From NCBI GenBank assembly GCA_963710605.1, contig CAVQBA010000004.1, forward strand, positions 992,001-1,056,000: a stretch of 64,000 bases of DNA, given 5' to 3'. The DNA is from an uncultured cyanobacterium. Lineage in GTDB: Bacteria > Cyanobacteriota > Cyanobacteriia > Cyanobacteriales > Cyanobacteriaceae. Made by a program: the position numbers and the translations under genes. The notes under the pieces were generated by a model. The model worked only from the letters and a program-made list of their open reading frames with translations, had not been told where the DNA came from and made no database searches. Positions 12,126 through 32,488 of the stretch are shown piece by piece; positions within the stretch are counted from its first letter, which is position 1, and each line of letters starts with the position of its first letter.

Positions 12126-12310
12126 TGTACATTCAATAATTAAACGTCGCTAATTAACACATTGTTGTCGTAAATATTGCTAGACTATAAAACAGTTTAA
12201 GTTATAACACTACAAAGCTTTAAGCTGTTTTTTCTTCAATGATAACGATTACGTTTTGTTTAAAACATTATATGTCGCTCTTGTATGTTTTTAATAAATT
12301 GGTTGTCGTT
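12126..12310 (+). repeat. tnsB-proximal transposon end (RE by convention) with ~4 TnsB-binding sites
   Basis: TGTACA terminus, then repeated ..GTCG(C/T) motifs at ~12145, ~12166, ~12273 and ~12304. Confidence 0.8.
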
Positions 12311-12360: not shown

Positions 12361-14053
12361 ATGGCAAAATTGTCATCTAATAAACCAAGGGTGTATAGAC
12401 TTTCTTCTGATGAACAGATCACTGATGAAGTAAAGCTGAGAATAGAAGTCATTCAAACTCTTATAGAGCCATGCGATCGTCAACTATACCGACAACGAAA
12501 GCAAGAAGCAGCTCAAAAGTTGGGTGTGTCCATTCGATCGATTCGAAAGATTGATGAAAAAGTATCGAGAAGAGGGTTTAGTTGGTATTAGTAAAAGTAG
12601 ATCTGATAAAGGAAAAGTTCGTATTGATCGAGATTGGTATGACTTTATTTTGGATACTTATAAAAAAGGTAATCAAAGAGGCAAAAGAATTACTCGGCAT
12701 CAAGTGTTCTTGAAAGTTAAAGGACGTGCTAAGCAATTAAGACTAGAGAAAAAAGATTATCCTAGCCATCAAACAGTTTATCGAATTATCGATTTATATA
12801 TAGAAGAACAAGATAAGAAACGTAAAGCAAGGAGTCCTGGTTATTCAGGTTCTCGCTTGACTCACATGACTCGTGATGGTAGAGAAATCGAAGTGGAAGC
12901 AAGTAATGATGTTTGGCAATGCGATCATACTCGTCTTGATGTCAGATTAATTGACGAATTTGGAATTTTAGATCGTCCTTGGTTGACTATTATTATCGAT
13001 TCGTATTCTCGTTGTTTGATGGGTTTTTACTTGGGTTTTGAAAGTCCTAGTTCTCAAGTTGATGCTTTAGCTTTGCGTCAGGCAATTTTACCGAAATCTT
13101 ATAGTTCGGATTATGGTTTACGTAACGAATGGACTGCTTATGGTACACCGACTTACTTTTATACTGATGGAGGTAAAGATTTTCGCTCAATTCATTTGAC
13201 AGAACAAGTCGCTGTACAGTTAGGTTTTAGTTGTTCTTTAAGAAGACGACCTTCTGATGGAGGTATTGTCGAACGTTTTTTTCGTACTCTCAACGATAGT
13301 GTTTTAAGAGAACTACCTGGATATACAGGAGCAAATGTTCAACAACGTCCCAAAAATGTCGATCTCAATGCTTCTCTTACTCTCAAAGATTTAGAGCTAA
13401 TTTTAGTTCGTTATATTATTGACGAATATAATCAAAAAGCCGATGCCAGAAGAAAGGATGCTACTCGGATGCAATTGTGGGAAAGCGGCTTAATTGTCGA
13501 ACCCGAACCCTACAATGAAAGAGAACTTGATATTTGTTTGATGAAACAAACAAGAAGAACGATTCAGAAGTTTGGCACGTTGCAATTTGAGAATGTAACC
13601 TATAAAAGTAATCATCTTCGAGGCATGGCTGGTGAAGTTGTCGTAATTTGTTACGATCCCGAAGATATTACTACAATATTAGTATATGAGCGTTTGAATG
13701 ATGATACAGAGCAATTTTTAGATTATGCTATAGCTCAGGGATTGGAAGCGGAAAAACTATCACTACGAGAATTAAAAGCTATTAATAAAAAATTGAATCA
13801 AGAGCAGGAAAAAATTAATAATGATGCTGTACTTGATGCCATTTTAGAACGAGAAGTTTTAGTGGAGGAGTTGAGTAAAAAGAATCGTCAAGAACGTCGT
13901 CAAGTAGCTCACCAAGAAGTTAATACCGTTAGAACAGTAGCAGAAAAGTTAAATATTGCTGAGCCTGAAGTTGTGGAAGAGGAAGAAAATGAAGAGGAAG
14001 AGTTACCTTCCTATCAAGTCCAGTATATGGATGACCTTTTTGATGATGATTAA
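12361..14053 (+). CDS. tnsB: CAST transposase TnsB (DDE), one-base frameshift near 12544
   Basis: HTH AAQKLGVSIRSI then ERLMKKY in the next frame; catalytic QCDHT, YTDGGKDF, GIVERFF. Confidence 0.92.
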
Positions 14054-14076: not shown

Positions 14077-14934
14077 ATGACGAATGCGGAAGTAATTGCG
14101 AATCAGTTTGGTAGTTTGCCTACTATCACTCCTGAAATTCAAGCCCAAATCGATCGATTAAATAAATATCCCTATATTGAGTTCAAGCAAGTGAAAGAAT
14201 GTCATGATTGGATGTATGAATTAGTACTTTCTCGCATGACGGGTTTACTGGTGGGAAAATCTAGTTGTGGTAAAACGGTCACTTGCAAATCTTTTATGGC
14301 AAGATACAATAAATCAAAGCAAGGAAACAAACAGAGAATTAAGCCCGTAGTTTATATTCAAGTTCCTGAAAAATGTGGTTCGAGAGATTTTTTTATCAAA
14401 ATACTTAAGGTGTTGAATAAACCAACTAAGGGAACAATTTCAGATTTGAGGGAAAGAACGCTTGACGGTTTGGCGATTCATTGTTGTGAAATGTTAATCA
14501 TTGATGAAGCTAACCACCTCAAACAAGAAACCTTTGCTGATGTTAGACATGTTTATGATGAGGATGATTTAAATATCTCGGTTTTATTGGTTGGTACAAC
14601 AAATCGTTTAGAAACAGTTGTTAGAAGAGATGAACAGGTAGCTAATCGCTTTTTGGAAGAATACGAACTCGATAGATTAGATGATAAGGAGTTTAAAACT
14701 ATTGTGAGAGTTTGGGAAAGAGATATTTTGAGATTACCCGAACCTTCTAATTTAGCAACAGCCGAAAATATTAGACTGTTGAAAAGCTCTACTCGTAAAT
14801 TACTCGGACGTTTAGAGAAAATTTTACGTAAAGCAGCGATTCGTTCTTTATGCAGGGGAGAAAAACATATTACGCCTGAAATTTTGAAGCAAGTAATTAG
14901 TTCTACTAAATGGTCTGATGAAAGAAGAAAATGA
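14077..14934 (+). CDS. tnsC: CAST AAA+ ATPase TnsC
   Basis: Walker A GKSSCGKT, Walker B MLIIDEA, RDEQVANRF. Confidence 0.93.
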   Translation: MTNAEVIANQFGSLPTITPEIQAQIDRLNKYPYIEFKQVKECHDWMYELVLSRMTGLLVGKSSCGKTVTCKSFMARYNKSKQGNKQRIKPVVYIQVPEKCGSRDFFIKILKVLNKPTKGTISDLRERTLDGLAIHCCEMLIIDEANHLKQETFADVRHVYDEDDLNISVLLVGTTNRLETVVRRDEQVANRFLEEYELDRLDDKEFKTIVRVWERDILRLPEPSNLATAENIRLLKSSTRKLLGRLEKILRKAAIRSLCRGEKHITPEILKQVISSTKWSDERRK

Positions 14935-15430
14935 GTTATGGTTAACAAAAATTGAACCATTCGCAGGGGAAAGTATCAGTCATTTTTTAGGTCGCTTTCG
15001 TCGTGCGAGAGGAAATCGTTTTTCTGCTCCTAGTGGTTTAGGAGAAGTGACAGGATTAGGTTCGGCTATATCTCGATGGGAAAAGTTTTATTTTTCACCT
15101 TTCCCCACACAAGAAGAGTTAGAAAAATTAGCAATAGTTGTGATGTTAGATGTCGATCGTCTTACACAGATGTTTCCTGATGAAGGTATGGTAACGCAAC
15201 CAAAACCAATTATGCTTTGTGCAATGTGTTATCAAGAATCTCCTTATCATCGAATAGAGTGGCAAGATAAGAAGAATAAAAGAGGGTGTAGAGTCCATAA
15301 TCTAAAACTACTTTCTAAATGTACTAATTGTGGAACTCCTTTTGCTATTCCTTCGATGTGGGTTGAAGGAAAATGTAGTCATTGTCATCTACCGTTCATG
15401 AAAATGAGTAAAAAACAAAAATCTTTGTAA
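14918..15430 (+). CDS. tniQ: Minimal TniQ
   Basis: EPFAGESISHFLGRFRR; Zn ligands CAMC, CRVH, CTNC, CSHC; overlaps tnsC end. Confidence 0.93.
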   Translation: MKEENELWLTKIEPFAGESISHFLGRFRRARGNRFSAPSGLGEVTGLGSAISRWEKFYFSPFPTQEELEKLAIVVMLDVDRLTQMFPDEGMVTQPKPIMLCAMCYQESPYHRIEWQDKKNKRGCRVHNLKLLSKCTNCGTPFAIPSMWVEGKCSHCHLPFMKMSKKQKSL

Positions 15431-15542: not shown

Positions 15543-18500
15543 ATGAATCGAAATGCTTTAGTTATTGGAATAAATAACTATCCTTTTTTGAAAAAAACCA
15601 ATGGACAAACAAACAATTTGACTACTCCAGCAACAGATGCTGAAGCGATCGCATCCTTATTAGAAAATCATGGTAACTTTAAAGTTAAACGATTACCAGA
15701 AGCTAGTATTGACGGCAAGCTACAGGTAGATCCGAATGGAACAGTTAACGCTAAAGAATTACAAAAAGAAATAAAAAATTTATTTTTACCAGAAAGTCAA
15801 CAAATTCCTGATACTGCCTTATTATTTTTTACTGGACATGGTTTGAGAAAAAAACAAGCAAAAAGATATAAAGGCTTTTTAGCAACGAGTGATTGTAATT
15901 TTAGTCAAGATAGATACGGTTTTTCACTACAAGTTTTAAGAGAAATATTAGAAAATAGTGATATTCTTCAACAAATAATCTGGTTAGATTGTTGTTATGC
16001 AGGAGAATTACTTAATTTTGAGGAAGCAAATCCAGAAGAAAAAGGAAGAGCGAGAGATCGTTTTTTTGTAAGTGCATCTGCTGATTTTGAAGAGGCGTAT
16101 CAGCTTTTAAATAAAAAATCAGGAGCTTTAAGTAGTGTCTTATTAAGAGGACTCAATCCTCGACAAAAAAAGCAACAACAATGGATTAATAATTTTTTCG
16201 TAGCTGATTTTATTTGTGAAGAATTTCAAACAAATCCTCAACTCAAAAATTTACCTCAAAGACCTGTTTGTCATAACTATGGAGGAATAATTCAACTTAT
16301 TCAAGGAGAAAAAATAGACGAAGAAATAAAAATTGATACATTAATTTCATCATCTCAAAAAACACAACAAAAATTGACTGTTGAGTTGATGTATAAGCAT
16401 TTTGAAAGAGTCAAAGCTATTGCTGGAACACGCTATACTCCCGAAATTAATGTTGATTTGCCAGAAGCTAGAATCTTTGAAGCTTTAGGTACAACAGATG
16501 TTTTCTTCAACAAAATTAACAATTTATATTCTCAGCTATATCATAAGTGGAAAAAGATTAAGATATTACCACAATCATTACAACAATTTATTTATATAAT
16601 CAATTTAAGAAATAATCTAGAAAATGATATCAAACCATTAATCAATATTTTGAAAAAAATACCAGAAAGAGATACGTTAATTATAGATTTTGACTCTATG
16701 GTTTCTTATTCAAAGAAAATTTCTGAGTATGATATTTTTGATTTAATTTATCCAGATAATATTAACCAAATAAAAAAATCAAAAGATAACAATAATGATG
16801 ATTTAAATAGAGCTTTAAATTATATTTATAATGATGTTTCCAAGCTCAAAACATTAGTAACCGAAATTTATCAACTTGTCATAAATGAAGTAGCGGCTTG
16901 TCATAACAGAAAACTTCTACTTATTGGAGAAGCGGGTACAGGTAAAACTCATCTCTTGTGTGATATTGCTAAACATCGTCTTGATAAATCACTCCCAACA
17001 ATAATTTTATTAGGACAACATTTTACTCAAGGTAATCCTTGGACTCAGATTATCAACCGATTCAATCTTTCGTTTCAAAATCAAGATGAATTCTTAGAAG
17101 CATTGGAAACTAGTGCAAAAAGTTGTGGTAGTCGAGCAATGATTTTGATTGATGCTCTTAATGAAACTACTGATAAAGGTTTATGGAAAAATGAATTAGC
17201 GGGGATGTTAACAGATTTAGATAACTATCCAAATATTTGTATTGCTGTCAGTTGTCGAACTTCATACGAGAAAGCAACAATTCCCGAAGAACTTGTTCCA
17301 GAAAAATTAGTTAAAGTTAAACATCATGGGTTTGAAAATCACGAATATATTGCAACAAAAACCTTTTTTAATCATTATGGAATTGAGCTTCCCAATGTAC
17401 CTTTACTAGTTCCAGAGTTTTCTAACCCACTTTTTTTGAAAACACTTTGTCAAGGTCTTAACAAGAAAAAATTAACCCGAATACCCAAAGGTTGTAAAGG
17501 AATTACTGCTATTTTAAATTTGTTTATAGATTCAGTTCATAATACTTTATCTGAACGACTTAATTATGACGAAAAAGATAATTTAGTGAAAAAAGCGTTA
17601 CAAGCTCTAGCTTTAACTATGGCAGACAATGGAGAAACTTGGATAGAAAGAAAAAAAGCACGAACTATTGTTAATTCGTTTTTACCGATAAGCAATAGTA
17701 ATTTTTCACAGAGTTTATTTAGTAATCTAATCGCTGAAGGATTATTATCAGAAGATTTACATTATTCTTCTTCAGAAGATATATACGAAGATGAGCAAGA
17801 AATTCATATTATTAGATTTCCTTACGAAAAATTTAGCGATCATTTAATTGTTCGTTATTTACTGCAAAAATACTTTGATAAAAATAATCCTGAGAAATCA
17901 CTAGAAAAAAATAACTCATTAGGAAAACTAATACAAAATAAATGGAACATATTTAACAAAGCTGGTTTATTTGAAGCTTTGTGCGTTCAAATACCCGAAT
18001 TAATTGGCAAAGAATTAATGGAATTAACATCATGGAATGTATTGTATTTTGAACGTCCATTTCTACAAAGTATTATTTGGCGTAATCCAAAGACAATCAC
18101 TCAAAAAACCAAAGATTATCTTAATGAAATATTTAAGGAAGAGGGAACAGAAGAAAAAGTTTATGAGCTTTTACTTACAGTTGCAACTGAACCAAACCAT
18201 CCTCTAAATGCCAAGTATCTGCATAAACATCTTCTCAACATGAATATGTCAGATAGAGATGCTATTTGGTCTGTTTATCTCTATTATCAATATGGAGAAA
18301 AAACGATTGTCGATCGTTTAGTTGAATGGGCATGGGATGCAGAAAAAGCTCATATTTGCGATGAGTCGATCGAACTTTATGCGATCGCTTTAACATGGTT
18401 TTTGACAACATCCGATCGTTTTCTTCGCGATCGAGCTACCAAAGCTTTAGTTTCAATGCTACATCCTAGACCTCTTGTTTTAGTGAAAGTGATTGAACAA

Positions 18501-20559
18501 TTTTTAGAAGTTAACGATCTTTATGTTTTAGAGCGTTTATATGCTGTTGCTTATGGCGTAGCGATGCTAAGTGAAAATTATCAAGAAGTAGGAGATCTAG
18601 CTCATAAAGTATATGAGTGGGTATTTAAAGATGAAAAACCACCAACACATATTCTTTTACGTGATTATGCTAGTGGAGTCATTGAAGTAGCAAATAATCT
18701 TGGGGCTTTATCAACCAATATAGATATGGAGAAAACCTCACCTCCTTATCAAAGTGATTGGGAACTAGATATTCCGACACAAGAGGAGCTAGAGCTATAT
18801 ATTAAACTAATTAAGCTTTGTTTTGATAATAGTATAACAAAACTAATATTACTATCCCTTCTTCAATCGTGGGATCTTAATTGCTTAATGATTTATTGGT
18901 TAAATTTTTGGTTGATAATCACTTTAAGAACAACTGATAGTGAATATCATCAACATCCTAAATATGCTTTAGACTTAGTCCAAAGATCTGTTCTTAATGA
19001 TGACCCTGTAATGGGAGGTGACTTTTCTATATATGTGATAGATTATTGTACCAATAATTGGTTTTCTCGCAGAATAAATCAACCCAAGGAATTAACTAAA
19101 AAAGAAAAATATGAGCAGTTTATTGACTCTCTTACTGATAAACAAAAACAAGCATGGAAAAAATATACGATAGCACGAGAAAACGTGAACTACTATGAAA
19201 CATTAGATCGAGAAGGTCGTATAGAATGCTTTGGAGAAGAATATTCAGATGAAAAATTAGTAGAGGCATTAGAATTTAAGAAATCATTATTTTTAAAGAC
19301 AATTGGTAAAAAGAAAACAGACATTTTTCTAAGTTATGTTCTGGATTATTTAGAAAATTCACGAGAAGAAAATATAGATATTTTTGATTCTTCCTTCGCA
19401 AAACGATGGATTCTTAAGCGGGTATTCGAATTAGGCTGGACGATCGAACAATTTGGCTTTTTCGATCGACACTGTTCCAGTCAAATGTCGTATTGCTAAT
19501 AAACCAGAGCGTATAGGTAAAAAATATCAATGGATTGCTTTTCATGAGTTTTTAGCACATATGGCGGATAATTTAGAGTTTAGAGAATCTTATTTATCCG
19601 ATAAAGTATCTGTTTATCAAGGTACTTGGCAAATTAGTGTAAGAGATATCGACCCATCTTTTTTATTGAAAAAAATTCCAGAATCTTCAATAAACCAAGT
19701 TAGATGGTTGACACCTGTTCACCACGAATTTAAGCATTGTATTAATGAAAAAGAACAAATAGATTGGATAACCAAAAAAAATGATTACCCCGATCCTTTA
19801 CAATTGATTGAATTAAATAATCCTGACGATAATAAACACTGGTTAACGTTAGAAGGTTTTTACCGATGGATGGAAAAAGAACCTTTAGAAGAAAAAATTT
19901 ATGAGAATCCTCGCAGAGAAATTTGGTATCAAATCAAAAGCTATATTGTTCGTAGTGAAAATGTAGATGAATTAGTTGAATGGTTAAAAGATAAAAATTT
20001 TGAAGGTAGATGGATGCCAGAATCACATCATATATCTAATGTTTCTGATGCTTTTTTGGGTGAATTTCCTTGGTCTGTATCTTGTCAAGAAGTAAATCAA
20101 ATCAATGATTGGACTCAATACACTAGTTCTCAAGAAGAATTACCACACCCAGTTTTAGTAACAACAACAGAATATATGAGTGAGGAAGGTGGATTTGATT
20201 GTTCGATTGATGAGACAATATCAGCTTTGATACCATCTAGTTGGCTAATAAAGAATATGGGATTAAAATGCTCCAGGAAAAAATTTGATTTTGTCGATTC
20301 AGATAACGAATTAACTGCTTTTACTCCATTAGGTGAACGACTTCCTAAAAATTGTCTGATCTCTAAAGAAAAATTGGCTCGTTTTCTGTTAGAAAATAAT
20401 TTAGAGATTATCTGGACATTATTGGGTGAGCGTCAACTTATTGGTGGCGAATTTGGTAAATGGAAAGGACGTATGGAAATTTCAGGAGTATATCAACTAA
20501 AAAATGGTTCAGTAACTCAAATAAAACTGAATAATTGGCATAACAAACCAAAAGAATAA
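15543..20559 (+). CDS. Caspase (peptidase C14)-Avs2-type STAND ATPase fusion, frameshift near 19470-19500
   Basis: N-terminal ALVIGINNY, FTGHG, WLDCCYAG (His/Cys dyad); then RYTPEINVDLP, GEAGTGKT, LIDALNE, LRDRATKAL, ERIGKKYQWIA, RDIDPS, motifs I recognise from AVAST type 2. Confidence 0.78.
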
Positions 20560-20601: not shown

Positions 20602-22287
20602 TTAACTTGCTTCACTCTCCTCAGGATTATTTTCACTCTGTAACTTTCTTAATCCTTGATTGGCAATATCCGCACTCAATCCCCATAAAAATAAACCTAA
20701 ATAATCATATAATCCATTAACTCCAAAAGTTGCTCCTGCGTTTACATATAAAGTTTGTAATCCTAATAATACTAAAAGAATCAAGAAAACTAACCATAAA
20801 AGAGGACGAATTAACCAATAACGCACTTCTGCATTGAGAGTTTGAATACCAGATAATGCCGCTAAAAGTTTTGCCAACCAATTCCAACGATGACCGCCAG
20901 GAAGTCTAGGTTTTGGTAAAGCTTGAAAAGCCTCAATTAACTGATTACTATTTTCACGAAAGCTATCTAATAAAGGTTGAATAATATCATCACCTATTCC
21001 CATTGAACCATCTGCTTGTGCTTCTCTTAATTTGTCCTCAACTTCATTACTTAATTGTTGTGCTTGTTCGAGATTACCATTGATTAATGACTCTCTAGCT
21101 TCGTTGATTTTAGGATTTAATAATGCTTTGAGTGCATCTAATTCATTTAATTTAGTTTCTAAAGCTTCTAAGTTACTTGAAAAACTAACGATGATATCAA
21201 GCTTCTTCAATTCTTGTTCTACTATTTCTTCTGTTTCTTCTCCTCGATCGATTTTCTGTTTTAATGCTTGAAATTGTGGCTCTAAATAATTCAAAACATC
21301 TTCATTATTAATACTGACTGCTTTACCACGCAATTGAGCGTAACGAGGATAAAGGTTAACCTGTTTTTGTGCTTTAGGACTTTCCATATCCTGTGATAGT
21401 CTTCCTACCAGAATACCCAAAATAATCACAATTAAAGCCCAAATAGGTGCATCACGTACTGCTATAGTTGTATTAACCTTGAGGGGTTCATCAGCATTTT
21501 CTAACTTAAATCTTAAAGTACCCTGATAAAAGTCTGCGGAAAGTTGATTGCGATTAATTATTAACTCAATATCTCCAATATCTTGAGTTTCCAAAGTTGG
21601 ATTAAGAACAGTTAGAGATATTTCACTACTATTTACTGAATTACCTGTTTTTTCCCCTTGCATGACTACCTTCGCATCAGTAATTTGAACAGGAATTAAA
21701 GTTTCATTATCTAGCTGTACTATCCATTGATTCTTTGTCACGCTATCTGGTAATAACAAAGTGGCTAATCCACAACTAATAGGGTTATGACAACGAACTA
21801 CTTGAAAGTTTAAGTTGTCAGTAACAGGAGCAACATTAGGTTCGGCATCAATATCTAATTGCAAAGGGATTTCTAAAGGTTCAACATCCGTTTGTCCTGA
21901 AACTATAAACTGAATATTACCTTGATATTTACCTGGATGAATAATATTATTTATAGTAACTCGTACATCACGAGGTTGTCCTTTACTTAAACTTGTTCCT
22001 GTTGGAATGTTGATTTGGCTACGATCGATCTTGATACTGTCATCATTTACTTTAGTAAGATCAGAGGGGAGTATTTGCAAATCCTTAACTTCACCATCAG
22101 TTAATGTCAGCCTTACGTTACCACTAAAAGAAGTCGTTTCCTGATCTAATGTTCCTTTTATAATTAAAGGATTATCTTGCTTATCAACTATCAAACTAGG
22201 TAATTCCTGAGCTAAAACTTGAGATGAACTAAATATAATGACAACAAAGCTAATAACTAAAGTAAAACGCAACAATAACTTTCCCAT
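20602..22287 (-). CDS. Membrane protein: signal peptide, beta-rich extracytoplasmic region, TM helix, coiled coil, ~2 C-terminal TM helices
   Basis: Hydrophobic segments at the N-terminus, IWALIVIILGILVG, LLWLVFLILLVLLGL and YLGLFLWGLS; no family recognised. Confidence 0.7.
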   Translation of the reverse strand: MGKLLLRFTLVISFVVIIFSSSQVLAQELPSLIVDKQDNPLIIKGTLDQETTSFSGNVRLTLTDGEVKDLQILPSDLTKVNDDSIKIDRSQINIPTGTSLSKGQPRDVRVTINNIIHPGKYQGNIQFIVSGQTDVEPLEIPLQLDIDAEPNVAPVTDNLNFQVVRCHNPISCGLATLLLPDSVTKNQWIVQLDNETLIPVQITDAKVVMQGEKTGNSVNSSEISLTVLNPTLETQDIGDIELIINRNQLSADFYQGTLRFKLENADEPLKVNTTIAVRDAPIWALIVIILGILVGRLSQDMESPKAQKQVNLYPRYAQLRGKAVSINNEDVLNYLEPQFQALKQKIDRGEETEEIVEQELKKLDIIVSFSSNLEALETKLNELDALKALLNPKINEARESLINGNLEQAQQLSNEVEDKLREAQADGSMGIGDDIIQPLLDSFRENSNQLIEAFQALPKPRLPGGHRWNWLAKLLAALSGIQTLNAEVRYWLIRPLLWLVFLILLVLLGLQTLYVNAGATFGVNGLYDYLGLFLWGLSADIANQGLRKLQSENNPEESEAS

Positions 22288-22417: not shown

Positions 22418-25400
22418 TTAACCACACACAGGTTGAGCTAATTTTACATCAGCAGAAGCAAATAAGCTGTAAGCTAATCCTCTGGGGTCTAAATGTTCTC
22501 GTAATAAGCTGTGACGAGATTTAAATAAGGCTTCTCCTGCGGGATTTTGCTGTAAGAAGGATTGGAAAAAGTTAACCATAAAAGCATTCGCTAACATTTC
22601 TTTTACTTCACATTGCGTACCAATCACTCCAGCCGCACCTCAATCGCAGAAAAATTGTAGTAAATTCTCAAAATTATCAGGGGTATAATCAGCAGTGTCA
22701 CAAGCATTGAGAACAATTAAAGGTTGATGCTGGTCAAATTTCATATCCCATGCATCTAAATCTATTAACTGTATTTTATCACCATTACCAATAGTCAAAA
22801 AAGGACTATCATCAAATTCATCTATGCCTCCATGAGTATAAAAGTATAAAATATCTGCTGGAGTAGTACCATAATTTTTAATCATTTGTTTGAAGCTATC
22901 ACGGCTATCAATTCGCAGAAATTCTAGTTGTTTTGCTGAGGCTAATTTTCCTAATTCTTCCCAATGATGAGCTAATCGTTTAAAGTTGTTAAAGACAGTT
23001 GCATTAACTAATAACGGTAAATTATTACGAATAAATAAGGGTAAGGAATTTTTTGGTAAAGGTTTATGGGGTTCAAGTTTACAAGGTAATTGCTCGATAA
23101 TATAACGATAGCCCCAAAAACTATGAGGACAAACGGTTATTTCTTCCTCATCTGTACCATAACTAGGACAATCTTCAGGATTGGCACCATGTTGATGCCA
23201 ATTAGGACAAAGTTTAGTAACTCCCTCTTGATAAGACTCTATTTTTCGTTCATAAAGTAATTCCCAAGGTACACCTAAAGCACTAGATAAAGGAGCAACT
23301 TGAATTACTGTTTCGGGTTTTAAATCTACATTTAATCTTTGTCTGTCATCATGAATATCTTCTTGATAATCTAATCCCGGTAGTAAAGCTAAATAGAATT
23401 TTCTACCAATAACTGCTAATTCTCCTAAATGTTTAGTTAAAACTGCTTCTGTACTGCCTAATGTTCCTGAATAGGCGTTCATCGTTTGACATAATTGTTT
23501 ACGTATTACTGTTAAGGCTTTGGTTAATTTAGCGTCGGTTAAGGTTGATTGTTGAAAGCCTAAATCTGTTCCTTCTGTATCATAAAAGCGAAGTCCAATG
23601 CGATTATAGTCTATATCTCTTTCAGCGACAATCGTTAATTTACGAGGTTTATCTTGAAGAGGTTTTAAATCTTCAGTGCTTAAAGAGACAGCACGAGTCC
23701 AAGTTACATAAGCATCTTGCACAGGAAATGCTGATTCTGGTGGTTCATCTTCTGCATTTTCTACCACATCAATTTCTATTCTTTTTGATTGTAATAAATG
23801 CCCTTGTAAAAGTAGGTCTATATCAATACTATGTCTTCCTGTACGAGTAAAGGTTAAATCAAAAAAGATATATTCACTATCTCCTTTGGGAGGAAGTTTT
23901 AGTTTTTGAATTGGTGAATCTATTTCTACATCAAAAGAATTAACAACTACATCTAAATCTAAATATTCTTTATCTTCAAATAAGGTTTTTATTGATTCAT
24001 CTGGAAAGGTAACGTTAGGGTTTCCTATTCCCCAAAATTTACCAATATTAATTTTTAGATAATACTTTTTGGTATTTAGTTTCAATGGTTGATGAGTTGA
24101 GATATTTTTTTTCTCATTCAGTAAACAAAAACCACAATTTAGATAACGTTTTTCAAAAGAAAACGATTTATCTTTATTTGATAATTGTTGCTTAATTGCG
24201 TTATTAAGAATTCTATTTTCAGAAATATCATTTTCAGTAATGTGACCTGAATCTAAACAATTGGAAATAGCATTACTAACCTCATCCTTAAATGAATATC
24301 TTTGCACAATTCGCACATAAGACACTGCTTTACAACCCTTGGACCAAGACATGACTAAAGTATCGAAAATATCTTTAGCTTTTAAGGCTCTTTCTTCTTC
24401 GTATTTAAAATAAACTCCTTGGTTAAGGTTAAAGAGTAATTCCATCGAAATCCCCGTATCAATCCATTGTTGAATTGTGGCGATCGCTTTTACTACTTCA
24501 TCTTGATGCAAATTTTTATTTTCTTGATAAAACCAATATTTATCACTAATATAAGGAGGTGCGATCGCTACTGTTCCTGTTGCCCACTTATCATAGAAAA
24601 ATCTACTATATACAGGTAAGACACTTGCTGTACATCCTTGAACCAAAGAAGAAGATGTATTAGGTGCGATCGCAGTTATATGTGAGTTACGTATTCCGTG
24701 TTGTTGAATATCTAATGATAATTGTTGCCAACGAGATGTATTGTAAGCGTTTTGCTCGAACCATTCCACAGGCTTACAACCAATTAATAAACCTTTACTC
24801 CAATCGCTATTTTCAAAGGCAGGATAAGCACCTCTTTCTTGAGATAGCTTCATAGAAGCATGAGTACAATAATAACCAATATCTTCAAATAAGTTACTAA
24901 TTTGATTGAGGTTGTTGTATCTTAATTGACGTTTGGCTAACCAATCGGCTAACCCCATCGCACCAACACCAATGGTACGATAACGATCGTTATGAGATGC
25001 GGCATCTTCAAAAGGAGGTTGAGTAATTTCGATCGTATTATCTAAAATTCTCACGGCTAAATTACAGACAGATTCAATTATTTGATCATCCACATTAGCT
25101 AAATTGAGCGATACTAAATTACAACAATGAGCATATTTACCAGGGGTAACATTAGAAAAAGATTCGGTACATAAATTGACACCAGGAATATAACCATCAT
25201 GTTTATTTGGATTAGCTCGATTAATGGCATCTTTAAAAGCTAAGTAAGGCATTCCTGTCTCTACTTGTGCTTTCATTATTTCTTTGAATAATTCTCTAGC
25301 ACTTACTTTTTTGTAGAGTTTGATTCTGGTATCTATACTTGCTTCAATTACAGAGTAAGCCTCTTCAAATTCTTTACCCCATAAAGGTGCTAAATCGATA

Positions 25401-26567
25401 CCTAAGTTCTGTTGTACTTCATAAGGATCGATTAAAGTCCATTCTTGCCTATTTTGTACCCGACGCATAAATTCATCGGCGATAACTAGTTGAGGAAAGA
25501 CATCGTAGGCTTTACGACGTTGGTCGCCATTTTCGGTTTGCATTTCCAAAAATTCGGGTACATCTAAATGCCAAATATCTAAACCGACGGTAACTGCCCC
25601 TGCTCGTCTTCCTCCTTGATTAACAGCAATAGCTGTATCGTTGAGTAATTTAATCCAAGGTATTACACCACCTGAAGCGTTGTTTTTACCCATTACAGCA
25701 CTGCCTGTGGCACGTATTCTGGATACATTAACTCCTACTCCACCACCATTTTTAGAAATACGAGCGGTGTTAGTTATTTCTCGGAAAATACTTTCTAAGT
25801 TGTCGTCAATACTCACAATAAAACAACTTGTCAATGAGCCATTTGGTACTCTTAAGTTCGCCAAAATCGGTGTAGCTAAAGAAATACGACGAGATGCGAT
25901 CGCTTCGTAAAATTGACGAGCATAATGTAATCTCTCTTCAGGTGCCTCTACCATCGCTAATAATAAAGCACAAGTTAAAAACGCTTCTTGAGGTAACTCA
26001 TCATCAAGTAAATAACGATTAGTTAGTAAAACTGCCCCTGCGTAGTCATAATCTAAATCCCAGTCAGAATTAATCCAACTACCCGCTTCTTCTAATTCTG
26101 CGGTTGAATAAGTTAAAATACGATCGTCATATTTACCTTGAGCAACAAAGTCACTTACTGTTTGTACATAATTACCGTAGTTATAACCCCGACTAACTAA
26201 AATTTCTTTCCACAAACTCCAAATATATAAACGCCCAGCTACATAACGCCAATCTGGTTGCTCCAGAATCACATAATTCTAAAGCACAGTTGATTAAATT
26301 ATCTTGAATTTCTCTAGTCGTAATTCCATGACGTAAACGAGTTTTCAAACCCGATTCTAAAGCAATTGAATTAACTTCTTTGGGGTAACAAGCCCAATCA
26401 ACAACTTTTCTGATTTTACTAATGTCTAAAGGAGCAAATTGACCACTTCTTTTGATTACTTGAATTTGCTTAGGTAATTTTTCGTATCGTAACTTATCTA
26501 GATTATGCTTTACATTATCATCTATAAAAGTTTTTTTTTCTTGAACTTGATTTTTAGATGAACTCAT
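22418..26567 (-). CDS. ATP-cone + class I ribonucleotide reductase alpha (NrdA) fused to a CHAT protease; frameshift ~26270 and in-frame TGA at 22640-22642
   Basis: ATP cone IQVIKRSG..TTREIQ; RNR motifs LATPILAN, TSCF, NLCTE, CNLVS, TAIAPNTSSS; open frame continues into CHAT motifs YFYTHGG and LNACD; GAAGVIGTQCEV follows the TGA in frame. Confidence 0.8.
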
Positions 26568-26657: not shown

Positions 26658-28928
26658 TTACTTAACTAATTCTTGAGCTAACTTAACATCAGCAGAAGCA
26701 AATAAACTATAAACTAAACCTCTAGGATCTAACTGATTTAATAGTATTTTACGAGCCTGAAATAACGCTTCCCCTGCACAAGTTTTTTGAAAGAAAGACT
26801 TAAAGAAATGAATCATTAACTCATTAGCTAACATCTCCTTTACTTCACATTGTGTACCGATTACTCCCGCCGCACCTTTATCATGAAAAAACTGTAACAA
26901 ATTTTCAAAACTTTCAGGACTATAGCCAGCAGAATCACAAGCATTTAATACAATTAAAGGTTGATGTAGATTAAAATTAATATTCCAAGCATCTAAATCA
27001 TTTTTCTTAATTTGTTCTCCATCTCCCACTTCAAGATATGGTCTTCTAAAAATATCACTTCCTCCATGAGTATAAAAATACAAAATATCAGCAGAATTAT
27101 CAATATCGAATAAAGCAGATTCTACCTTATCTAAACTATCAAGTTTTAATAATTCCAGTATTTCTTTAGATGCTAAATTACGTAAGTTTTGCCAATGTTC
27201 ATCTAATAGATTTAATTCATTAGAAACGATCGCCTTAAACTGTAAAGGTGACTGATTACGAATTAATAAAGGTAAAGAATGCTCAGGGGTAGAAGCATGA
27301 GGCATAACTTTACAAGGTAATTGCTCAATAATATAGCGATAACCCCAAAAACTATGGGGACAAACTGTTTTGGCTTCTTCTTTTGTGCCATAACTAGGGC
27401 AATCTTCAGGATTCGCACCGTGCTGTTTCCATGTGGGACAAAGTTTAATTTTTCCTTCACGATAACTTTCTATTTTACGCTCATAAAGTAACTCCCAAGG
27501 CACACCTAATTGACTCGATAAAGGTGCTACTTGAATGATAGTTTTTGGTTGTAAATCAACTCTTAAATTTTCTCCCCTATCTATCTTATTTTTTTGCCCA
27601 GATAACTTGGGTAATAATTCTGTATAAAATGATCTGCCAATATCGGCTAATTTACCTAAATGCTTAGTTAAAACTTCTTCTGTACTCCCAATACTGCCTC
27701 CATAACCTTTTACCATTGTTTCACATAATTGAGTCCGTATTGCAGCTAAAACTTGAGTTAAATTATCATTAGTTAGTTGAGAATGTTGGCAACCTAAATC
27801 TTTTCCTGTGTTATCGTAAAATCTTAAGCCGATACGATTATAATCAATATCCCTTTCCGTTACTATGGTTAACCTACGAGGATTCTTCTTTAAAAAAGTT
27901 AATTCATCTGGATTTAAAGTAGCACTACGAGTCCAAGTAATATAAGCATCTTGTACTGGAAAAGCAGATTCTGGGGCAATATCTCCTGATTTTTCCACCA
28001 CATAAACTTCAACTCGTTTTGACTGTAATAAATACCCATGAAACATTAAATCAATATCAATACTTTGTCTTTGAGTGCGAGTAAAAGTCACAGGAAAATC
28101 AATAAATTCACTATCACCTATTTTGGAGAGTTTTAATCGTTGTTGACTAGATATGATTTCAACGTCAAAAGAATGAAGTATTACATCCATTTCTAAAGTA
28201 TCTTTATCTTCAAAAAAAGGCTCTAATAATTCTTCTGGTAAAGCAGTATCGGGAGAACCAATTCCCCAAAATTTCCCAACATTAACTTTTAAAATATACT
28301 CGGCGATTTCTAAAGCTAAAGGCTGTTGGGTATCGACAAATCGATAATGATTTAATGAATAATGATCTAATTGATAAAATCCTGTATTTATATAACGAGG
28401 CTGTATTTTATCTATACCTTTGTCTATATCTTCTCTTATAACTCCCTCATCGGAATTACTTACATCGGTAGCTGAATTAAAATAATACTCAAATTTTTCA
28501 TCTATATTGGAATTGGTAATTAACTGCTTAGGATTATCCGATTTGAAAATCTGGCTAGCGGCAACAATAATGGGTACAGAATTATTTTCATCTATACCAA
28601 AAGTAATCGGTTTATTTTCTTCTAAGTTTAATTTTTCTATATCCTGCCAAGTAGGTAATATCTGTTCGACTGATTCTTTCCCGAAGGTACTTTCAATTAA
28701 ATTCAATTTAAAGTAATTTGCTTGATATATCCTCTTTAATTCTTCATCGTTTTCAATAATTGTCATTAACGCTGGTTCAATTTCTTCTTCCCAGTCTTCA
28801 GGTGCCATTTCCAGCATATTCCCAATATTTCTTAATGACTCTAACCTTTCTGGAGGTAGAGTTGCATTGAATTCTCTTAAAGTTGGTAAAACAATAGAAA
28901 GTGTTCTATTAATATCTAAATTTGCCAT
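26658..28928 (-). CDS. CHAT-domain (clan CD) cysteine protease with helical N-terminal domain; paralog of the C-terminal half of the NrdA fusion
   Basis: VPWELLY, FWGYRYIIEQLP, YFYTHGG, LNACDS, GAAGVIGT; likely ATG at 28928 (ORF track 28976). Confidence 0.82.
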   Translation of the reverse strand: MANLDINRTLSIVLPTLREFNATLPPERLESLRNIGNMLEMAPEDWEEEIEPALMTIIENDEELKRIYQANYFKLNLIESTFGKESVEQILPTWQDIEKLNLEENKPITFGIDENNSVPIIVAASQIFKSDNPKQLITNSNIDEKFEYYFNSATDVSNSDEGVIREDIDKGIDKIQPRYINTGFYQLDHYSLNHYRFVDTQQPLALEIAEYILKVNVGKFWGIGSPDTALPEELLEPFFEDKDTLEMDVILHSFDVEIISSQQRLKLSKIGDSEFIDFPVTFTRTQRQSIDIDLMFHGYLLQSKRVEVYVVEKSGDIAPESAFPVQDAYITWTRSATLNPDELTFLKKNPRRLTIVTERDIDYNRIGLRFYDNTGKDLGCQHSQLTNDNLTQVLAAIRTQLCETMVKGYGGSIGSTEEVLTKHLGKLADIGRSFYTELLPKLSGQKNKIDRGENLRVDLQPKTIIQVAPLSSQLGVPWELLYERKIESYREGKIKLCPTWKQHGANPEDCPSYGTKEEAKTVCPHSFWGYRYIIEQLPCKVMPHASTPEHSLPLLIRNQSPLQFKAIVSNELNLLDEHWQNLRNLASKEILELLKLDSLDKVESALFDIDNSADILYFYTHGGSDIFRRPYLEVGDGEQIKKNDLDAWNINFNLHQPLIVLNACDSAGYSPESFENLLQFFHDKGAAGVIGTQCEVKEMLANELMIHFFKSFFQKTCAGEALFQARKILLNQLDPRGLVYSLFASADVKLAQELVK

Positions 28929-28976
28929 TTTTTTAAGTACATTGACAATAACTAATAAATAACAAAATAAATCCAA

Positions 28977-29153
28977 CTAATCCATTAATTTTTTTTGTGA
29001 AGATGGAATCTTGCCCTCATTTTCAGCATCTTCAATCGCTCTTTCCACCAAATAAGCCGCTAAATTAGCCACAGGACGACCTTGATTATTAGCCCATCTT
29101 TCCAAAGTTTCAAATACCTTATCTGGCAAAGTTAAATATACTCTCTTTGTCAT
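28977..29153 (-). CDS. Arc/CopG-like ribbon-helix-helix repressor, 58 aa, divergent from cas12k (not in ORF track)
   Basis: Hand translation MTKRVYLTLPDKVFETLERWANNQGRPVANLAAYLVERAIEDAENEGKIPSSQKKLMD*; occupies the regulator slot typical of V-K CASTs. Confidence 0.82.
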   Translation of the reverse strand: MTKRVYLTLPDKVFETLERWANNQGRPVANLAAYLVERAIEDAENEGKIPSSQKKLMD

Positions 29154-29291: not shown

Positions 29292-31163
29292 ATGAGTATC
29301 AAAACGATCGAATGTCGTCTTTATGCTTCTTCAGAAACTAAACGTTATCTTTGGCAGTTAATGGCAGATAGAAACACTCCTCTAATAAATGAGTTACTAT
29401 TTCAAGTCAGTCAACATCAAGACTTTGAAACTTGGTTTCAGACTAAAAAAATTGCTCAAAAACCCATCAAGGATATTTGTTTACCATTAAGACAACTTCC
29501 TCAATATCAAGAACAACCAGGAAGATTTTTCACGAGTGCGATTGCTTTGACTCATTACATATATAAATCATGGTTCGCAGTTCAACAGAGGCTTCAGCGA
29601 CGAATTGAAGGTAAACGTAGATGGTTTAATATTCTCAAAAGCGATTTAGAATTACAACAATTATCGGGTAACTCTATTGAAAAAATTATTACTCAAGCAG
29701 AAAAAATACTTGAGGACACTGAAACTCAGTTAAAACAAACAAAAAAAGATAGGAATAAAAAGAAAGATTCTAATTTATTCAACCACTTGATCGACGAATA
29801 CCAATCAAAAACTAATACTTTAGAACGGTGTGCGATTGCTTACTTACTCAAAAATCAATGCCAAATACCAGATGAAATAGAAGATATAGCTAAATTTGAG
29901 CAATATAGAAGAAAAAAAGAAATCGAAATCGAAAGACTTCAACAGCAACTAGAGAATCGTCTGCCGAAGGGTAGAGATTTAACTAGTAGAGAATGGTTTG
30001 ATACTTTGGCGATTGCATCAGAAAAAGTACCTGAAACTGAAAATGAAGCATCCGCTTGGCAAAGTAGCTTGTTAAGAAAATCACCGATTATTCCTTACCC
30101 AGTTAGTTATGAAACTAACACCGATTTAAGTTGGTCAAAAGATCGGCGAGGACATCTATTAGTCAAATTTAATGGTATTAGTAAACATCAGTTTGAAATA
30201 AGATGCGATAGAAGACATTTACATTGGTTTCAACGCTTTTGGGAAGATAGACAAATTTACAAACAAGATCCAACTAAATATAGCAGTGCCTTATTCACAC
30301 TTCGTTCTGCTCGTTTATTATGGCGTGAAAATAAAGGAAAAGGTAATCCTTGGGATATTCATACACTCTACTTACAATGTTCGCTAGATACTCGTTTTTG
30401 GACAGTAGAAGGTACACAAGAAATTGCTCAAACTAAAATTACTCAAACAAAAGAAAAATTAGAAAAAATTCAAGCTAAACCAGTTCTTAATTCTAATCAA
30501 GAAGCAGATCGACAACGAAAGCAATCTAGCTTAGAGAGAATCCAGAATCCTTTTCCACGACCACATAAACAACATTATAGAGGTAATCCCAATCTTATCT
30601 TAGGAGTTAGTTTTGGATTACGAAAACCTGCCACTGTTGCTGTAGTTAACGTTTTGACTCAAAAAGCGATCGTTTATCGTAGCATCAAACAATTATTGAA
30701 TGAAAACTATAAATTACTGAATCGTCAACGTCAACAGAAAATAGAATTGTCAAAACAAAGACACAAAGCCCAAAAACACGAAGGATTTAATCAAATAGGA
30801 GAGTCTAATTTAGGTGAATATGTCGATCGATTGATTGCCAAAGCGATCGTTGATATTGCCAAATCTTATCGAGTAGGTAGTATTTTTTTACCAGAACTGA
30901 AAAATATTCGTGAAATTTTACATAGTGAAGTTCAAGCTAAAGCAGAAATTAAAATTACTGGTTATAAAGAAGCTCAGAAAAAATATATGAAAGAATACCG
31001 TAAAAATTTACATCAATGGAGTTATAGCAGACTAATAGAATCAATTAGTCAACTAGCCAATCAAGAAAGAATATCCGTTGAATTTATCAAACAAAGTAAT
31101 GATGGTACACAGCAGGAAAAAGCTAAAAGGATAGCGATCGATGGTTACAATTCTCGCTCTTGA
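29292..31163 (+). CDS. cas12k: Cas12k (C2c5), nuclease-dead type V-K effector
   Basis: TIECRL..RYLWQLMADRNTPLINELL, QPGRFFTSA, RLPKGRD; RuvC-I Asp replaced (LGVSFGL); HQWSYSRL. Confidence 0.96.
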   Translation: MSIKTIECRLYASSETKRYLWQLMADRNTPLINELLFQVSQHQDFETWFQTKKIAQKPIKDICLPLRQLPQYQEQPGRFFTSAIALTHYIYKSWFAVQQRLQRRIEGKRRWFNILKSDLELQQLSGNSIEKIITQAEKILEDTETQLKQTKKDRNKKKDSNLFNHLIDEYQSKTNTLERCAIAYLLKNQCQIPDEIEDIAKFEQYRRKKEIEIERLQQQLENRLPKGRDLTSREWFDTLAIASEKVPETENEASAWQSSLLRKSPIIPYPVSYETNTDLSWSKDRRGHLLVKFNGISKHQFEIRCDRRHLHWFQRFWEDRQIYKQDPTKYSSALFTLRSARLLWRENKGKGNPWDIHTLYLQCSLDTRFWTVEGTQEIAQTKITQTKEKLEKIQAKPVLNSNQEADRQRKQSSLERIQNPFPRPHKQHYRGNPNLILGVSFGLRKPATVAVVNVLTQKAIVYRSIKQLLNENYKLLNRQRQQKIELSKQRHKAQKHEGFNQIGESNLGEYVDRLIAKAIVDIAKSYRVGSIFLPELKNIREILHSEVQAKAEIKITGYKEAQKKYMKEYRKNLHQWSYSRLIESISQLANQERISVEFIKQSNDGTQQEKAKRIAIDGYNSRS

Positions 31164-31751: not shown

Positions 31752-32150
31752 GTTTCAACGCTCTGATTAGTGTTTCGTAGATTGAAAGAAAAAAAGAGGC
31801 AATAAAGATTTAAAAATTGCTGGGTTTCAACGCTCTGATTAGTGTTTCGTAGATTGAAAGCATCAAGTAAAAGATATATTGCTATTTTCTACTCTGTTTC
31901 AACGCTCTGATTAGTGTTTCGTAGATTGAAAGGATCTTTCTGAAATTCAGAAAATTCCCGATTATCTGTTTCAACGCTCTGATTAGTGTTTCGTAGATTG
32001 AAAGTTTAGGATTAAAACCCGAAACCGTTGAAAGCTTGGTTGTTTCAACGCTCTGATTAGTGTTTCGTAGATTGAAAGCTAAATGGTTACTATCTCACAA
32101 TCGTGATGGTTTAGTTTCAATGCTCTGATTAGTGTTTCGTAGATTGAAAG
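31752..32150 (+). CRISPR. CRISPR array: 6 repeats (37 bp GTTTCAACGCTCTGATTAGTGTTTCGTAGATTGAAAG) and 5 spacers of 35-37 bp
   Basis: Repeats start at 31752, 31824, 31896, 31968, 32042 and 32114 (last has one C>T); TGAAAG 3' end typical of V-K. Confidence 0.97.
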
Positions 32151-32330: not shown

Positions 32331-32396
32331 GCGACATTATTTGGTTAAACTGCGACAATAATGTGTGAACAACGACACTTAATTATTGAATGTACA
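32331..32396 (-). repeat. tRNA-proximal transposon end (LE by convention) with 3 tandem TnsB sites
   Basis: Three CGACA motifs about 21 bp apart, ending TTAATTATTGAATGTACA. Confidence 0.88.
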
Positions 32397-32414: not shown

Positions 32415-32488
32415 TCGGGATGACAGGATTCGAACCTGCGACATCCTGCTCCCAAAGCAGGCGCGCTACCAAGCTGCGCTACATCCCG
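32415..32488 (-). tRNA. trnP: tRNA-Pro(UGG)
   Basis: CGGGATGTAGCGCAGCTTGGTAGCGCG-CCTGC-TTTGGGA-GCAGG...GGTTCGAATCC...CATCCCGA cloverleaf. Confidence 0.97.

Follow-up and report, generated by a model that had tools for sequence, protein, structure and literature searches.

We analysed a 64,000-nt stretch of DNA, called the window below, from an uncultured cyanobacterium of the Cyanobacteriaceae (assembly GCA_963710605.1, contig CAVQBA010000004.1, positions 992,001 to 1,056,000), whose genome comprises 3.93 Mb in 7 contigs with 33% G+C. On the minus strand of the window, from 26567 to 22418, lies a gene in which an ATP-cone and a class Ia ribonucleotide reductase (RNR) alpha subunit, NrdA, continue in frame into a beta-sandwich and CHAT protease module. 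An earlier note on this DNA had placed the junction at about 24280, and the last nrdA-derived codon indeed ends at 24281 on the minus strand; the active-site motifs that it named (TSCF, NLCTE and CNL) and the CHAT His and Cys were likewise all located in the sequence. As assembled here, the gene is cut into three open reading frames (ORFs) by an extra base and an in-frame stop, neither of which is present in a second assembly of the locus. The features of the gene and of its two closest neighbours are as follows.

26567-26193, minus strand: ORF 1 of the fusion gene, 124 aa, with a Pfam ATP-cone match
26272-22640, minus strand: ORF 2 of the fusion gene, 1210 aa, with Pfam Ribonuc_red_lgN, Ribonuc_red_lgC and CHAT matches
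22627-22418, minus strand: ORF 3 of the fusion gene, 69 aa, the tail of the CHAT domain (Pfam)
26469-26567, minus strand: leader (start codon and 33 aa), without kinship to the N-terminus of family NrdAs; present in P0131 of the second assembly
24281-26468, minus strand: nrdA-derived segment (ATP-cone, all-alpha domain and barrel, up to ..RYSFKDE), from nucleotide identity, Pfam and NCBIfam
26267-26268, minus strand: extra T (GAT-T-CTGG) that shifts the frame in this assembly; within GATC in the second assembly
25831-25820, minus strand: TSCF motif, from the sequence
25177-25163, minus strand: NLCTE motif, from the sequence
25126-25115, minus strand: CCNL motif, from the sequence
24322-24317, minus strand: Ser-Tyr codons within KAVSYVR, in place of the Tyr-Tyr dyad, from the sequence; also in P0121 of the second assembly
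24281, minus strand: end of the last nrdA-derived codon (E of RYSFKDE), from the sequence
24149-24280, minus strand: linker of about 44 aa between the end of NrdA and the CHAT-family module, with no nrdA similarity beyond ..FKDE
22418-24148, minus strand: CHAT-family module (beta-sandwich, helical region and caspase-like CHAT) from RYLNCGF onwards, from the family alignment
22834-22832, minus strand: CHAT catalytic His, in YTHGG, invariant in the alignment
22702-22700, minus strand: CHAT catalytic Cys, in NACDT, invariant in the alignment
22640-22642, minus strand: in-frame TGA in the context CGAT/TGA (CGAT then TGA), where the family has Arg
20602-22287, minus strand: 561-aa membrane protein, partner of the CHAT family, 130 nt downstream of the fusion gene
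26658-28976, minus strand: second CHAT-family protease (clade B, 756-772 aa) with another N-terminal head, 61% identical to the fusion module

The NrdA part scores 44.2 (ATP-cone), 57.4 (Ribonuc_red_lgN) and 441.8 bits (Ribonuc_red_lgC) with the Pfam models, all above the curated cut-offs, and 573 bits with the NCBIfam model TIGR02506 (NrdE_NrdA), for which the cut-off is 341. A class II (B12) RNR was considered as its identity and rejected, the class I models scoring far higher. The CHAT domain (Pfam PF12770) is matched in two pieces with 23.2 and 20.9 bits, under the cut-off of 24 because the TGA divides the domain; intact members of the CHAT family obtain 45-64 bits with this model. Scanning the locus for promoters and terminators returned sites no more numerous than in shuffled sequences.

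The genome possesses, besides the fusion, a complete 770-aa housekeeping nrdA on contig C7 and nrdB on a third contig, so that the absence of nrdB reported earlier holds for the window but not for the organism. The names of the database matches put this organism in a cyanobacterial family to which Geminocystis and Cyanobacterium belong. The fused copy is 88.4% identical in nucleotides to the housekeeping gene over 2189 nt (93% in protein), and none of 30 relatives comes as near to it as that gene does. Over 670 gap-free codons the two genes differ with a dN of 0.039 and a dS of 0.60 (omega 0.065), and a three-taxon decomposition with four outgroups gives an omega of 0.06-0.09 on the fusion branch and of 0.04-0.07 on the housekeeping branch. 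The fused NrdA is thus a diverged copy of the host nrdA under strong purifying selection. Nucleotide identity per 50-codon window varies between 83 and 95%, and the evenness of this divergence along the gene rules out a recent gene conversion with the housekeeping copy. By parsimony the fusion branch carries 16 amino acid changes, of which 13 lie inside the NrdA part and 3 past the junction, while the housekeeping branch carries 13. DNA similarity between the two copies opens at codon 34, where the ATP-cone begins, and stops 7 codons before the housekeeping stop, and the leader of the fusion differs from the ML(L/F)(D/E)TQ start found in all 11 family NrdAs with a readable N-terminus, the organism's own copy included. 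These limits, together with the unrelated leader, establish that the nrdA-derived piece is internal to the gene, bounded precisely at domain edges and joined in frame at both ends.

Work on the E. coli enzyme has made the Tyr-Tyr dyad part of the radical-transfer path to the beta subunit; the C-terminal Cys pair re-reduces the RNR active site, and the TSCF, NLCTE and CCNL motifs hold the active-site Cys/Asn/Cys/Glu and the second Cys. The fusion reads Ser-Tyr at a dyad column that is invariably Tyr in 88 other cyanobacterial NrdAs, and its C-terminal Cys pair is gone, similarity halting at ..FKDE, after which the linker begins. The own housekeeping NrdA and all 11 relatives with a readable end carry the KAVYYVR..(C)TACAN C-terminus, which makes the Ser and the lost Cys tail real departures and bears out both of the corresponding claims of the earlier note. 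From these two losses, the first Tyr of the dyad and the redox tail, the fused NrdA is predicted to be no longer able to turn over, and its sequence retains the fold, the substrate and effector motifs and the ATP-cone. The fusion departs at four columns that are at least 97% conserved among the 88 cyanobacterial NrdAs and at which the own housekeeping copy does not depart: Lys to Thr and Pro to Ala in WA(K)GTV(P)IAPP, Tyr to Ser in the dyad and Asp to Tyr in QR(D). All four fall within the last 52 of the 363 columns conserved to this degree (post-hoc P of about 4e-4). At the other end of the segment, the first hairpin of the ATP-cone has three changes at positions where 11 relatives show little or no variation.

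The other half of the protein belongs to a protease family that we found in cyanobacteria, Smithella and Chloroflexi. The family module, of about 570 aa and beginning with RY(L/I)N.GF, stands behind a variable N-terminal head, which is TCAD7 (Pfam PF19973) in some members, CpXC with TPR in others, and of at least two unnamed types besides; one member combines a long N-terminus with a C-terminal FGE-sulfatase domain. The fusion module is 47-71% identical to 23 members, and in the alignment of these 24 sequences it holds 79 of the 79 invariant columns, among them the catalytic His (YTHGG) and Cys (NACD(T/S)). At the columns that are invariant in the other 23 members it shows a single, conservative departure (S to T), the range among the members themselves being 0-11. 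A maximum-likelihood tree groups the fusion with P0001 and P0002 (Calothrix plasmid protein) with a support of 100/100 (clade A), on a branch of ordinary length (0.18), and assigns the upstream neighbour protease to a second cyanobacterial clade (clade B). By these comparisons the CHAT half is under purifying selection, with no relaxation visible, and NrdA occupies the exact position of the family's variable N-terminal head. In the AlphaFold model of the module (pLDDT 75.6) we distinguish a beta-sandwich, a helical region and an alpha/beta domain; against the PDB it matches Csx29/TPR-CHAT chains best (7zoq_A, E 8e-7; 8eex_B; 8d9f_A), with TM-scores so low (0.17-0.19) that only the CHAT core can be called alike.

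The earlier note had reported a frameshift at 26270 and a stop at 22640. Both are present in this assembly, but they are probably artefacts, as the second assembly reads through the two sites. That assembly holds the locus on one 19,093-nt contig with highly fragmented genes, and its pieces (P0131, P0127, P0121, P0129, P0128 and P0130) are 94-100% identical to the window over the aligned parts, with the same junction and the same Ser-Tyr and Thr/Ala changes. P0131 crosses the frameshift site in one frame (..LELCD-L-EQPDW..), from which it follows that the window holds one extra T where the second assembly has GATC, and P0130 has Arg at the TGA site, the same as the family consensus. The second assembly has frameshifts of its own elsewhere, and not a single lesion is common to both assemblies.

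The TGA has counterparts throughout the genome. Single stops between two long ORFs of the same frame number 147, of which 45 are TGA, and 15 of these 45 stand in the CGAT-TGA context, always as an Asp followed by the stop. In each of the four cases tested, the two ORFs are parts of one housekeeping gene, which the lesion cuts at one position of its model: glyQ (positions 2-172 and 174-291), mnmG (1-454 and 456-614), pcrA (1-381 and 383-721) and, in the window itself, clpB (45746-47047 and 47051-48397, with the TGA at 47045-47047; model positions 1-410 and 413-852). Since a split glyQ is incompatible with life, C-to-T miscalls made systematically at CGATCG most probably account for the CGAT-TGA stops, the one at 22640 included; a miscalled CGA (Arg) is very likely at this site. 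CGATCG is strongly over-represented in the genome (8449 copies, or 57% of the 14858 GATC sites). We also observed that CGATTG and CAATCG are about twice as common genome-wide as CGATAG and CTATCG, an excess compatible with an iterated palindrome, probably a methylated one, that either decays or is miscalled. Nanopore errors induced by methylation are the subject of published papers (PMC11610573 and PMC12506013). Regarding the extra T at 26267/26268, frame-joining sites occur in the GA-TT-C context at 18 of 7801 places and overall at 432 of 395,639, a 2.1-fold enrichment, and here too an assembly error is the likely cause.

Wholesale frameshift noise in the assembly was considered and found no support, only about 1 of some 47 strong ABC ATPase matches being broken; the errors are motif-specific instead. 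In the broken ABC ATPase gene (C7:260489-260922), one base seems to be missing from a homopolymer of the Walker A region, which reads AAA instead of AAAA. By marker genes the genome is 85% complete, a figure that CGAT-TGA errors may help to explain for a genome in 7 contigs. The locus probably encodes a single protein of about 1,380 aa, from a gene that is intact in the organism.

The membrane protein downstream of the fusion is a regular companion of the protease family. In 7 of 7 other loci taken from species-representative genomes (L017-L023, from cyanobacteria, Smithella and Chloroflexi), the next gene after the protease gene, on the same strand, encodes a homolog of it, with partner identities of 40-70% and gaps that range from a 4-nt overlap to about 740 nt. 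A CHAT protease with variable heads and a membrane protein of about 550 aa form a cross-phylum cassette that is not in PADLOC: version 2.0 returned no match for the neighbouring CHAT protein or the membrane protein, and for the fusion a BovA match only, a weak one (E 6e-5). The predicted structure of the partner comprises a signal peptide, two Ig-like domains, a transmembrane (TM) helix, a helical cytoplasmic region and C-terminal TM helices, and a fold search with this model gave generic Ig-like matches only. The RNR-CHAT gene is located between the clade-B protease and the membrane partner. On the Calothrix plasmid, a TPR-CHAT gene precedes the cassette.

We modelled the complex with the clade-B protease (residues 176-756) and the partner (residues 283-561), the fusion itself not being the modelled protein. 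The ipSAE was 0.64 in 3 of 3 runs and 0.00 for the best of 3 controls; of 80 solved complexes 58 attain this mark, as do 2 of 110 mismatched pairs, counts that apply only approximately here because the complex was modelled from our own alignments. Contact agreement between runs was at least 96% and the partner pLDDT at least 67. The predicted contacts join protease residues 407-423, 573-574 and 697-699 to partner residues 382-389 and to a conserved DGSMG loop (422-429), and the protease motif at the predicted contact is also conserved in the fusion. The model supports binding between protease and partner.

The cassette is carried as cargo by a seemingly complete type V-K CRISPR-associated transposon (CAST), the features of which are given here along with the neighbouring genes.

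12127-32395: type V-K CAST carrying the cassette as cargo, with TnsB, TnsC and Cas12k (PADLOC)
12127-12144 and 32378-32395: terminal inverted repeats of the CAST, 18 nt
12524-14053: tnsB (PADLOC)
14077-14934: tnsC (PADLOC)
14918-15430: ORF at the tniQ position, no Pfam match, putative TniQ
15543-20559: Avs2-like caspase-STAND gene, other cargo of the CAST, split into two overlapping ORFs (PADLOC)
28977-29153, minus strand: 58-aa ribbon-helix-helix (RHH) protein heading the minus-strand gene row (Pfam RHH_5, 67 bits)
29292-31163: cas12k (PADLOC), divergent from the RHH gene
31752-32150: six CRISPR repeats of 37 nt
32415-32488: tRNA-Pro just outside the CAST

A 17-nt direct repeat, AAGGAGTATAGATGTAA, is found at both ends of the CAST, beside the tRNA-Pro, and is longer than the short target duplication that is expected. 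The RHH protein is 33% identical over 39 aa to the product of a 58-aa gene near the Calothrix cassette. Within the Avs2-like gene, the 47-nt overlap of the two ORFs (19453-19499) contains a T5 run abutting CGATCG, and a one-base indel would join the frames; this split may also be an assembly error.

In class Ia RNR, ATP and dATP change the oligomeric state through the ATP-cone. We tentatively propose, with something less than even confidence, that a copy of the host NrdA replaced the head of a CHAT protease and that the presumably dead NrdA now serves as the input of a protease acting on the membrane protein, in defence. The piece of host class Ia RNR alpha that would have taken the place of the variable head begins with the ATP-cone and stops just short of the Cys tail. 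As an input, the NrdA head might bring the CHAT domains to their active state by an ATP/dATP-dependent oligomerisation via the ATP-cone; alternatively, it might capture a factor that binds RNR alpha, either NrdB or a foreign RNR-targeting protein. The activated protease would act on the cytoplasmic helical domain of the membrane protein, where the predicted contact is the DGSMG loop, and cleavage would alter membrane integrity and so abort the infection. A nucleotide- or RNR-directed sensor role is plausible. One might speculate further that the protein is an integrated-decoy or metabolic-sensor immune protease, in which a surge of dATP or of deoxynucleoside triphosphates (dNTPs), or else a phage protein binding RNR alpha, triggers cleavage of the membrane protein and sacrifice of the cell, on top of an undescribed cross-phylum cassette of CASTs and plasmids; this fuller version is possible but doubtful.

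Several observations weigh against the proposal of an NrdA-controlled protease. RNR-CHAT fusions number 0 among the 30 NrdA relatives and 0 at the 7 family loci of the species-representative scan, and none of 13 metagenome loci spans the junction. No protein with both RNR and CHAT domains occurs among the best 120 of 707 protein matches, in a database that shows cluster representatives and in which the fusion itself (P0126, 1191 aa) is hidden in the housekeeping NrdA cluster, where others could hide likewise; of two matches to short proteins one is the second assembly, and no other fusion emerged. The fusion appears, on this sampling, to be the invention of a single lineage. As the window partner is 70% identical to the partners of clade-B proteases and 54% to the clade-A (Calothrix) partner, the membrane protein is co-phyletic with the neighbouring clade-B protease and not with the fusion, and a defence role for a cassette that is absent from PADLOC is argued from context. 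The odd substitutions of the NrdA part cluster by both junctions, where recombination, and not adaptation, could have produced them. The low omega may also predate the fusion: the selection that it records may have acted on a functional nrdA, either in this organism or in a sister species in which the mobile element may have captured the piece; the age of the fusion is not datable. With regard to the integrity of the gene, the two assemblies may derive from the same reads, and the evidence that the frameshift is an error (the second assembly and the 2.1-fold enrichment) is weaker than that for the TGA.

Much of this would be expected of a chimera that is young and selectively neutral, in which recombination put part of an nrdA into a CHAT gene in a mobile element; such a gene would have no function of its own and would be whole, or almost whole, for lack of time to decay. 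The fusion is confined to one lineage, all catalytic-site motifs of the NrdA part are intact, which is consistent with youth, amino acid changes are as many on the fusion branch as on the housekeeping branch, as expected if it was mostly a working nrdA, and at the 3' junction identity falls to 75% over the last 69 nt, as compared with 88% overall; the copy in a mobile element may moreover be a xenolog from a sister species. We nevertheless rate a neutral origin as rather unlikely: both junctions are in frame at domain boundaries behind an open 33-codon leader, the four departures at columns conserved to at least 97% are non-randomly placed (last 52 of 363, with the post-hoc P value given above), the CHAT half is without relaxation, and among the protein database matches listed there is no donor nrdA closer than the host's own. 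The NrdA part might instead pair with the host NrdA or NrdB, and either tether the protease to the RNR holoenzyme or, when released, act as a dominant-negative alpha that lowers dNTP supply. Depletion of dNTPs is a known defence strategy, the copy is dead as far as its sequence can tell, and the high identity to the host alpha across the barrel suggests that the subunit contacts are probably kept; a constitutive dominant-negative alpha would however be costly, and in the solved CHAT systems (Craspase, SAVED-CHAT) the non-protease part is an input or adaptor, which leaves an RNR-directed module improbable. The earlier note had also envisaged a one-off decaying chimera. Of this, the uniqueness stands, no homolog of the architecture having been found outside the organism, whereas the breaks are most likely errors and not decay. 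That the extra T and the TGA are real in the strain and the gene dead is suggested by the contiguity of the 7-contig assembly in which both lesions stand, by C to T being a natural mutation at methylated CGATCG hotspots as well, and by the split in the neighbouring Avs2-like gene. A true pseudogene is for all that quite improbable, as a TGA lesion of the same kind interrupts glyQ and 13 further long reading frames, which no living cell would tolerate, both sites are open in the second assembly and carry the residues of the family consensus there, and hardly any other decay is visible. Finally, 85% completeness and systematic errors could raise the suspicion that the nrdA of a co-occurring strain was joined to the CHAT gene in assembly. 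A misassembled junction was among the concerns of the earlier note, and the junction holds: it is identical in the second assembly, both junctions are in frame, and the nrdA part is 12% different from the only other nrdA of the genome, so that an assembly chimera is hardly credible.

The architecture would be a new form of sensor-CHAT protease. If functional, it would be the first protease to have a whole RNR alpha subunit as its input domain, and would tie a cell-fate switch to the most thoroughly studied allosteric nucleotide sensor known to biology. Our literature search found no publication that combines ribonucleotide reductase with a CHAT domain, and no title or abstract among the defence and RNR papers that it matched describes an RNR-protease fusion. 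Beyond the fusion, the finding draws attention to a conserved pair of CHAT protease and membrane protein, with an interface predicted by modelling and unlisted in defence catalogues, and to CAST cargo as a workshop for domain shuffling. A practical consequence is that this assembly turns CGATCG into CGATTG and thereby creates false stops in at least 15 reading frames, which makes its pseudogene calls untrustworthy.

Among known systems, the closest in design are TPR-CHAT/Csx29 of Craspase (type III-E) and SAVED-CHAT (type III-B), in which, as in the fusion, a caspase-like CHAT domain with its His/Cys dyad stands behind an input or adaptor domain at the N-terminus; Csx29/TPR-CHAT chains are also the best structural matches of the fusion module. 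In both systems the protease acts on a dedicated partner encoded nearby, and a partner gene likewise adjoins here, its cleavage being proposed only. The head of the fusion is an RNR alpha subunit, where the heads of TPR-CHAT and SAVED-CHAT are TPR or SAVED, and a beta-sandwich stands between head and CHAT, unlike in those two proteins. The partner is a membrane protein rather than Csx30 or PCaspase, and the fusion is without a link to a type III effector. Compared with the host class Ia NrdA, with which it shares 93% amino acid identity, the ATP-cone, the all-alpha domain, the barrel and the TSCF, NLCTE and CCNL motifs, the fusion differs by the first Tyr of the dyad (now Ser), the replacement of the Cys pair and the N-terminus, the three changes in the ATP-cone hairpin and the fused protease. 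Catalytically dead RNR large subunits have been put to other use before, the herpesvirus R1 homologs M45 and ICP6 being reused in cell-death control. There too an RNR scaffold without its chemistry has been kept for binding or sensing, in a different RNR class and with partners that differ from those of the fusion.

Bacterial gasdermin systems and other protease-activated membrane effectors place a caspase-like protease gene beside the gene of a membrane-acting protein (PMC10312443). The logic proposed here, cleavage and then membrane damage, would be theirs as well; the partner of 561 aa differs by its signal peptide, its two Ig-like domains and its TM helices, and it gave no gasdermin match. 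A change in the nucleotide pool as a signal of infection also has a precedent, the rise in dNTPs driven by phage NrdAB being reported to activate the DRT2, DRT4 and DRT9 defences (bioRxiv 10.64898/2026.10.27.754916). In the DRT systems the signal is received through a polymerase, whereas the sensor proposed here would be an RNR alpha subunit with its own ATP-cone.

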